DNA from: a virus
Strand: one strand, 5' to 3'
DNA length: 64,000 nucleotides
IMG/VR virus record: IMGVR_UViG_3300046787_000206
Coordinates: 1 to 64,000 of that record
Part shown: positions 1,428 through 62,816 of the stretch, piece by piece
How positions within the stretch are numbered: the stretch's first letter is position 1
How the letters are laid out: the number at the start of each line of letters is the position of its first letter
Made by a program: the position numbers and the translations under genes
The notes under the pieces: generated by a model
What the model was told of the DNA's origin: nothing
Database searches by the model: none
The model's input: the letters and a program-made list of their open reading frames with translations, nothing else

Positions 1428-1455
1428 TTGACAACATGTGGAAAGTTATTAAACT
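1428..1455 (+). promoter_or_regulatory. Sigma-A-like promoter of the ncRNA/tRNA island
   Basis: TTGACA (1428-1433), 16 nt spacer, TAAACT (1450-1455); predicted start about 1461. Confidence 0.6.
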
Positions 1456-1462
1456 TGATACC

Positions 1463-1545
1463 ACTACAGATGCGTCTTCTCCTTTCTGTCGTTTGTAGTT
1501 GTTTGGTGAACAGCGGCCCCAAGTCCCCCCTTCGCTTGGGGCCGT
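1463..1545 (+). ncRNA. Putative two-hairpin sRNA with pyrimidine/C-rich loops (6C-RNA-like)
   Basis: Stem ACTACAGATG/CGTTTGTAGT with loop containing CTCCTTTC; stem GCGGCCCCAAG/CTTGGGGCCGT with loop TCCCCCCTTCG; begins at the predicted TSS. Confidence 0.45.
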
Positions 1546-1554
1546 ATCACCTAA

Positions 1555-1634
1555 GGGCCTGAAATGGTGTCGATTGCTTCTCAAAGCCGCTAGTCGGAGG
1601 AAGTAAGACCACAGTTCGATTCTGTGCAGGTCCA
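1555..1634 (+). ncRNA. ssrA: Minimal tmRNA: tRNA-like domain only, no mRNA-like domain
   Basis: Acceptor GGGCCTG/CAGGTCC with G3.U70 and A discriminator; stemless D-loop AAATGGTGTCGA; helix 2 TTGCTTCT/GGAAGTAA; GAC linker; T-arm CACAG-TTCGATT-CTGTG. Confidence 0.8.
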
Positions 1635-17588: not shown

Positions 17589-17624
17589 CCTACCTAACCT
17601 AACGCTCTTGAAAGGAGCAACCTA

Positions 17625-18749
17625 ATGGCGTCAGCTATTACAGGTTCGGGCCAGCTTGCTGGAGCCCCTACCGCATACTCAGGCAGCAACTCACAGCTGT
17701 CACAGGCAATTCAGACTATCTGGTCAAAGGAAATCCTATTCCAGGCAATGCCAATCCTTCGCTTCGAGCAGTTCGCTGTTAAGAAGACTGAACTTGGTGT
17801 AGCTCCTGGTCTACGTGTTAACTTCCTACGTTACAAGAACTTCGCAGTGGACGCTACTCCACTAACCGAAGGTGTACGTATGACCACCAACGCACTTACT
17901 GCTGAGCAGATTGCAATCACCGTTGCTGAGCACGGTTATGCTGTTGCTGTTTCGGAGCTTCTATTGAACGCTTCGTTCGACGACATCATGGCTTCAGCTT
18001 CACGCCTTCTAGGTCGCCACATGGCACAGTACCTAGACATCCAGGCACGTGACACTCTATCAGCTGCTACCTCAGCTACCTTCGGTTACAACCGTTCAGG
18101 TATCTCAGGCGGCGCTTTCACCAACTACGACGAGGGTGTTGTCGGTACCTCGATTGCTGACCTAGACGGTAACCACAAGCTTACCACTGGTGCAATCAAG
18201 GACTCAGCACTGGTTCTTGCTTCAAAGAACATCCCTCGCATTGGTGAGACCTACGTTCAGTTCATCCACCCTAAGCAGTCACGTGACCTTCGCTCGAACC
18301 CAGAGTTCATCGAAGTAACCAAGTACGCTGCTCCAGGTAACTTCATGCTAGGTGAAATCGGTCGTCTATACGACGTCGTCTTCATCGAGACCACTCAGGT
18401 CAAGAAGTTGGCTGCTAACGGCACCTACACCACCTCTTCTCTAGTTGGCGCTCCATCGTCACAGACCTCAGTTCCAGTGCTTCCAAACACTGGTCGTGGT
18501 CAGGGTGGAAACCCAGAGAACACCTCAGAAGCTACTGGTTACCTAACCTCGGCTACTGGCAACACTGCTGATGTCTACGAGTCAATCATGATTGGTGACA
18601 ACGCATTCGGACACGCTATCTCGCTTCCAGTTGAGCTTCGTGACGGTGGTGTTCTTGACTTTGGTCGTGAGCACGCACTTGCATGGTACTCAATCTGGGG
18701 TCTAGGTATCATCACCGACCAGGCTATCAACAAGGTTTACACCAACTAA
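17625..18749 (+). CDS. Major capsid protein
   Basis: 374 aa; IHPKQSRDL, GEIGRLYDVVFIET, DFGRE motifs; GAAAGGAG RBS; strongest codon bias. Confidence 0.93.
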   Translation: MASAITGSGQLAGAPTAYSGSNSQLSQAIQTIWSKEILFQAMPILRFEQFAVKKTELGVAPGLRVNFLRYKNFAVDATPLTEGVRMTTNALTAEQIAITVAEHGYAVAVSELLLNASFDDIMASASRLLGRHMAQYLDIQARDTLSAATSATFGYNRSGISGGAFTNYDEGVVGTSIADLDGNHKLTTGAIKDSALVLASKNIPRIGETYVQFIHPKQSRDLRSNPEFIEVTKYAAPGNFMLGEIGRLYDVVFIETTQVKKLAANGTYTTSSLVGAPSSQTSVPVLPNTGRGQGGNPENTSEATGYLTSATGNTADVYESIMIGDNAFGHAISLPVELRDGGVLDFGREHALAWYSIWGLGIITDQAINKVYTN

Positions 18750-19225: not shown

Positions 19226-19273
19226 TGTCCGTCCTGCTGGCACCCGCCCTCCTCCCAGCAGGACGGACTTTTT
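19226..19273 (+). terminator. Intrinsic terminator with C-rich loop
   Basis: GTCCGTCCTGCTGG/CCAGCAGGACGGAC then TTTTT. Confidence 0.8.
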
Positions 19274-62766: not shown

Positions 62767-62816
62767 GTATAGGGAGCCAGAGTTTTTCCCCCCTAGTTTT
62801 CTCTGGCTCCCTATAC
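62767..62816 (+). terminator. 16-bp hairpin with six-C loop
   Basis: GTATAGGGAGCCAGAG/CTCTGGCTCCCTATAC, loop TTTTTCCCCCCTAGTTTT. Confidence 0.55.

Follow-up and report, generated by a model that had tools for sequence, protein, structure and literature searches.

Two families of bacterial small RNAs (sRNAs) come closest in design to the RNA element described here. The first is 6C of the Actinobacteria (Rfam RF01066; B11 in mycobacteria), which is encoded by a chromosomal stand-alone gene and, like the element, consists of adjacent hairpins with C-rich loops on stable stems. The 6C loops, with six conserved cytosines, pair with G-rich ribosome-binding sites (RBS) independently of a chaperone (PMC6486639). 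The second family comprises the cuckoo or alpha-r14 sRNAs of the Alphaproteobacteria (CcsR1-4 and NfeR1), in which two to four adjacent hairpins have variable stems and an anti-Shine-Dalgarno (anti-SD) motif in every loop (PMC4615179). The cuckoo RNAs are as close an analogue of the element as 6C, the likeness being one of design and not of descent. In actinobacteria, the anti-SD CCUCCU is located within the terminal 11 nt of the 16S rRNA (PMC12274833). Two further points of comparison are cellular and have no sequence relation to the element, for which release and stability are predicted. First, spacer RNAs of tRNA operons, such as 3'ETS-leuZ of E. coli, are processing by-products that are able to persist and to act in trans. 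Second, 5'-terminal stem-loops, such as those of the ompA, ermC and aprE leaders, stabilise bacterial RNAs against 5'-end-dependent RNases. To our knowledge, the sRNAs of actinobacterial phages are essentially unstudied.

The element is located in a window of 64,000 nt, which represents the first 64 kb of one IMG/VR virus record of 94,962 bp with a completeness rating of 99%. The capsid protein of this phage is ~60% identical to those of the Streptomyces phages BRock, LuckySocke, Alone3 and GiJojo, so that the host is probably an actinobacterium and the host phylum is probably that of 6C, whereas it differs from that of the cuckoo RNAs. Closer capsid relatives were found on more than 600 uncultured IMG/VR contigs, several of which are ~90 kb long and carry terminal repeats. 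Positions 1-583 of the window and 94364-94962 of the genome form an imperfect end repeat with blocks of 117 nt (98%) and 299 nt (92%) separated by a non-matching stretch; both copies contain a leftward TTGACA-18 promoter-like site.

Fold and loops of the two-hairpin element

On the plus strand, the minimum-free-energy fold of positions 1463-1545 consisted of two hairpins with a mini-hairpin in between (Table 1). Its energy was -32.5 kcal/mol, compared with -19.4 ± 2.7 kcal/mol for shuffled sequences (z -4.94; 1 of 200 shuffles equally good). The reverse strand folded more weakly (-25.8, z -2.1), and the two G.U pairs of hairpin 1 are possible on the plus strand only. A minus-strand reading was rejected because of this weaker fold and because no start codon follows the SD-like word there. 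Part of the linker is able to pair with positions 1505-1509, which would lengthen hairpin 2. The coordinates and both loop sequences of the double hairpin were exactly those given in the preliminary description. A real RNA element on the plus strand was borne out by the fold (z -4.9), and its loop sequences proved to be conserved on changing stems in the related leaders described below.

Table 1 Features of the element, its surroundings and a candidate target (nt positions in the window)
Feature	Position	Strand	Remarks
Sigma-70/sigma-A-type promoter	1428-1455	+	TTGACA-16-TAAACT; 10/12 consensus matches
Hairpin 1	1463-1499	+	10-12 bp including two G.U; loop UCUUCUCCUUUC; extreme 5' end of the predicted transcript
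Polypyrimidine loop tract, 13 nt	1475-1487	+	Within hairpin 1; contains CUCCUUUCU
GU-rich spacer with 5-bp mini-hairpin	1500-1512	+	GUGAA common to the related leaders L122 and L117
Hairpin 2	1513-1545	+	12-bp GC-rich stem; loop CCCCCCUUC with C6 run; no U-tract after it
Linker, 9 nt	1546-1554	+	Runs to the predicted RNase P cleavage site
tRNA-like (tmRNA-TLD-like) RNA, ~80 nt	1555-1634	+	Covariation-supported; its 5' end bounds the leader
Capsid-gene RBS, GAAAGGAG	17610-17617	+	7 nt before ATG at 17625; exact complement of the hairpin-1 loop core

Within the hairpin-1 loop, CUCCUUUCU is a stretch that we take to be a 9-nt match to the 3' tail of actinobacterial 16S rRNA (nine of the last ten bases), the bases beyond CCUCCU being presumed. 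Polypyrimidine runs of at least 13 nt occur only three times on the plus strand of the genome, and CTCCTTTCT occurs once in all of its 94,962 bp.

Membership of the 6C family, as the 6C-like label of the preliminary description would suggest, did not hold up against the covariance model. RF01066 aligned with positions 1500-1550 at 17 bits, compared with a gathering cut-off of 47 bits (E 4.9 in a search of 261 nt and 0.42 in a search of the genome); the second 6C hairpin, with its outer stem and C6 loop, aligned with hairpin 2, and the first 6C hairpin was deleted. An Rfam scan over 6 kb gave no 6C match at E ≤ 10, and the homologous sequences L122, L120 and L125 gave none at the same threshold. 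Based on this score, the single aligned hairpin and the homologues without a match, 6C membership was rejected. In addition, the two C-run loops of 6C were not found together: in the window, C6 is present in hairpin 2 only, L122 has CCCC, and L117 and L006 have no such run. Compared with 6C, the hairpin-1 loop of the element is a U/C tract copying the anti-SD and not a C-run, and the element is phage-encoded, as the leader of a tRNA operon. Similarly, the motif CCUCCUCCC, which occurs in every loop of the cuckoo RNAs (PMC4615179), is found in neither UCUUCUCCUUUC nor CCCCCCUUC, and an Rfam match was lacking as well. The element carries YCCUUUCU instead, and its two loops are non-identical.

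Order of promoter, element and stable-RNA genes

The promoter is located downstream of the end of a GNAT-family gene (1422), and its position places the predicted transcription start at ~1460-1463, at the foot of hairpin 1. About 7 nt separate the element from the promoter and 9 nt from the tRNA-like RNA, the first nucleotide of which is G1555. Small adjacent genes at 786-1102 and 1102-1422 of the window, and at 626-1400 of the related sequence L008, have similar N-termini (MGANN.., MADRN..); one of them has a weak GNAT match, and they resemble a paralogous family of small phage proteins.

The tRNA-like RNA comprises an acceptor stem, a T arm and a covarying long helix that replaces the anticodon arm, and a tag-coding part is absent. 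It resembles the tRNA-like domain of tmRNA, because it combines an acceptor stem and a T arm with the absence of an anticodon arm. Among 15 variants, 97.9% of the cells were paired, 12 of the 22 pairs were changed on both sides, and the G3.U pair of the acceptor stem was invariant; in related phages, this RNA is 80-88% conserved. At 1555, neither ARAGORN nor Rfam made a call. Six tRNAs follow, up to position 2972. The spacers of this array are unusually long and structured. The 314-nt gap between tRNA-Asn and tRNA-Thr contains a sub-threshold tRNA-like match (1856-1935; 22.7 bits, cut-off 29), and directly 3' of tRNA-Asn an 8-bp hairpin with the loop UCCCCUU is found (1778-1800), the top of which (AAG-UCCCC..UUC) resembles that of hairpin 2.

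On one and the same strand, the element is hence preceded by a promoter and followed by the first RNase P substrate, with both a transcription start and a cleavage site predicted, and it is very probably the 5' external spacer, or transcribed leader, of a phage non-coding RNA operon. Since the tRNA-like RNA at 1555 heads a tRNA array, the element is considered an operon leader and not a demonstrated free-standing sRNA gene. No intrinsic terminator was called at 1463-1554, and no U-run follows position 1545. A leader RNA would thus have to obtain its 3' end through RNase P cleavage at the tRNA-like RNA. The tRNA operon of BRock (NC_048650.1) has a similar layout, with a TTGACA-17-TATAAT promoter, a short 5' hairpin and the first tRNA, but its leader contains just one hairpin, with 7 bp and a loop of 3 nt, and it has neither a polypyrimidine or C-rich loop nor a tRNA-like mini-RNA.

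Given its place close behind the promoter, at the start of an untranslated operon of 1.6 kb, the double hairpin could also represent a cis-acting leader for processive antitermination (cf. HK022 put, rrn boxA/boxB/boxC and lambda nut), which would protect RNA polymerase against Rho and against hairpins throughout the operon; the pyrimidine tract and the GU-rich spacer presumably recall boxA and boxC. Such a function is very improbable, as it would make no sense in the related leader L094, where the unit of the hairpin ends at a terminator ~90 nt further on, and as the spacer is not conserved in L006.

Leaders of related phages

For comparison, 19 distinct variants of the leader plus RNA were assembled from IMG/VR and metagenomes by anchoring on the tRNA-like RNA, and 16 of these were checked for a promoter. 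Leader arms were compared directly and no covariance model was used, since MAFFT misaligned the four leaders. In 12 of the 16 variants, G1 of the tRNA-like RNA is preceded by a TTGACA-type promoter at a distance of 38-99 nt; L006 has a promoter of the same type. A strong hairpin ended 2-9 nt before G1 in 10 of the 12 promoter-bearing leaders. In most relatives, the -35 box is part of the final codons of the upstream gene, which encodes an Hsp20. Directly 5' of the phage Hsp20 gene itself, a conserved structured sequence was seen in L006 (1750-1838) and L007 (4900-5012); two words common to both, one close to the 5' end of this sequence and the other close to the start codon, are able to pair. 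The structure possibly acts as an RNA thermometer or as a leader.

The core of the hairpin-1 loop, CCUUUCU, is kept in five lineages (the window and four others) on stems that are unrelated or compensating. Double-hairpin leaders were found in L122 (hairpin-1 loop UUCUUCUCCUUUC, hairpin-2 loop CCCCUUCU), in L117/L120 (hairpin-1 loop containing CCCCUUUCUU) and in L006 (hairpin-1 loop containing UCCCUUUCUU), each lineage having stems of its own. In L094, a lone hairpin with CCUCCUUUCU in its loop precedes only a tRNA-like RNA of ~85 nt, which is followed directly by the terminator. Across the lineages, loop identity extends over 9-13 nt, compared with an arm identity of ~45%. Between the window and L122, the hairpin-1 loop is identical at 12 of 13 positions and the arms at 7 of 15 and 9 of 16. 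Between the window and L117, 79 of 80 positions of the tRNA-like RNA are shared, whereas the leaders are strongly different except for the loop core. In the stem of hairpin 2, the window and L122 differ at 5 of the 12 pairs, with three double-sided and two single-sided changes, none of which disrupts the pairing; conservation of the hairpin-2 loop is confined to these two. As the loop core is kept on changing stems and hairpin 2 covaries with that of L122, the leader loops appear to be under sequence selection. A variable loop on conserved stems would have spoken against the element as first described; the opposite was found, the loops being kept while the stems change. These natural variants, with swapped stems and conserved loops, form a ready mutational series.

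All differences in the loop tract between lineages are C/U exchanges, so that pairing with purines is retained, and the pyrimidine tract is uninterrupted over 13-20 nt. The same property, an unbroken tract that varies by C/U exchange only, would suit a protein-binding site or a decoy, for instance for ribosomal protein S1, Rho or a MazF-type endoribonuclease attacking the 16S 3' tail. The link of the element with a tmRNA-like RNA, another ribosome-related mimic, favours this explanation too, and actinobacterial MazF toxins that remove the anti-SD exist (PMC12274833). It is improbable all the same: the MazF-mt11 site CACCU occurs in the linker of the window but is absent from the leaders of the relatives.

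The polypyrimidine double-hairpin design is, as far as these sequences go, lineage-restricted. A polypyrimidine loop precedes the tRNA-like RNA in only 4 of the 16 promoter-checked variants, in addition to L006, and in the other leaders the hairpin is missing or its loop is purine-rich or of the UUCG type. Of 50 related records scanned for the two-motif pattern, 49 lacked it and the remaining one was the contig of L006 itself, and megablast and blastn found no leader homologue in cultured phages. Exact-pattern scans of IMG/VR returned only unrelated contigs for the hairpin-2 stem and tRNA-Asn patterns, the contig of L006 alone for the promoter-plus-start pattern, and eight matches for the loop-1-plus-GUCCCC pattern, all of them chance-like (antisense of gene starts). 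A second type of hairpin occurs ~20-45 nt before the tRNA-like RNA in L101, L110 and L111; its purine-rich loop, GCAGGAAACG, is conserved and its stem covaries (GGGGAC/GUCCCC versus GGGUAC/GUACCC).

L006 lacks the tRNA-like RNA and retains the promoter and hairpin 1, and its hairpin 2 has a stem of 19 bp with UUUU directly behind it. Judged from the sequence, this arrangement of promoter, seed hairpin and terminator is that of an sRNA gene, and its occurrence without the tRNA-like RNA hints that the leader is perhaps worth keeping for its own sake. The terminator-like hairpin 2 of L006 is also in line with the original proposal of an independent 6C-like sRNA gene that has a 3' end of its own and would silence SD-led host mRNAs while leaderless phage genes escape, as are the alignment of hairpin 2 with the outer stem and C6 loop of the second 6C hairpin and the action of 6C through C-rich loops (PMC6486639). 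This proposal has little probability, given the 17 bits versus 47, the deleted first 6C hairpin and the homologues without a match (L122, L120 and L125); moreover, a U-tract after hairpin 2 is absent from the window, L122 and L117, and most phage genes are SD-led. The designation as a free-standing sRNA gene is not supported, since the element is flanked by a promoter and the leading RNA gene of an operon and since three of the four double-hairpin relatives lack a terminator U-tract.

A purely cis-acting structural leader is the other explanation suggested by this comparison, since 10 of the 12 promoter-bearing leaders have a hairpin at the leader position, with very different loops. The hairpins would then cap the 5' end and prevent mispairing with the tRNA-like RNA and the tRNAs, the loop would have no specific partner, and the 3' end of read-through mRNA from the upstream GNAT operon would possibly be protected after RNase P cleavage. 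The plain 7-bp leader hairpin of BRock, the pyrimidine-rich loops of other long intergenic hairpins of the genome, including the clear terminator at 19227-19268, and the stabilising effect of the 5'-terminal stem-loops of ompA, ermC and aprE all agree with this explanation. We consider it rather unlikely, because loops are normally the least constrained part of such structures, whereas here they are the part that is best kept across five lineages with unrelated stems.

Possible targets and mode of action

The hairpin-1 loop core is the exact complement of the RBS of the capsid gene (Table 1), as had been noted before, and the only other copy of the loop 8-mer in the genome is the antisense of this RBS. 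The capsid RBS is therefore a possible target, to judge by complementarity. This complementarity is not specific to the leader, because, of the phage SD sites, GAAAGGAG also matches the anti-SD of the ribosome itself most strongly. RNAduplex comparison of both loops with the whole phage genome revealed no extended target at translation starts beyond ordinary SD complementarity. Among 133 crudely predicted phage genes, ~65% carry an SD that pairs with the anti-SD at -6 kcal/mol or better, the capsid gene having the strongest. Given this share of SD-led genes, the phage itself would not escape an anti-SD mimic, and the idea that leaderless starts protect its genes has to be dropped.

A leader that is released by RNase P and also acts as an anti-SD riboregulator is the explanation that we prefer, tentatively and at somewhat less than even confidence for the statement as a whole; a mode of action through an anti-SD or C-rich loop is plausible. 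Transcription from the promoter would start at ~1460-1463, so that hairpin 1 would form at the very 5' end, and RNase P would cut at G1555, freeing a two-hairpin RNA of ~95 nt with a 5' triphosphate. The terminal hairpin would shield both the leader RNA and its precursor from 5'-end-dependent RNases. Hairpin 1 would expose the 13-nt tract copying the 16S rRNA 3' tail and hairpin 2 the C-run, through which the freed leader may pair with purine-rich, SD-type sequences. It would thus work like the 6C and cuckoo RNAs, being a member of neither family. Several observations stand against a riboregulator: the loop is found in only 4 of 16 leaders and in L006, BRock has no such loop, 49 other related records lack the two-motif pattern, the hairpin-2 loop is kept in the window and L122 only, and no extended phage target was found. 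In addition, a general anti-SD mimic must compete with ribosomes and would hit the SD-led genes of the phage itself.

If the loops do act, the leader would represent a phage riboregulator in an actinobacterial host that copies the anti-SD of the ribosome and arises as a by-product of tRNA-operon processing. If they have no partner, the locus would still be a clean example of the start of a stable-RNA operon in ~90-kb freshwater or soil actinophages, and it would caution against taking hairpins with C-rich loops for 6C homologues. The physical link with a mini-tmRNA-like RNA suggests a phage RNA block aimed at the translation apparatus of the host. An extended form of this idea, which we regard as distinctly improbable, is that the anti-SD-mimic hairpin and the mini-tmRNA-like RNA constitute one module imitating two RNAs that interact with the ribosome, namely the 3' tail of the 16S rRNA and the tRNA-like domain of tmRNA. 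This module would manipulate host translation or ribosome rescue, or would serve as a decoy for an anti-SD-directed defence nuclease (MazF-type).

Elsewhere in the genome, two intergenic hairpins have long C-rich pyrimidine loops. The one at 62767-62816 (16 bp) is without a T-run, and the one at 19227-19268 (14 bp) is followed by a T-run and forms a terminator after the capsid-region genes.
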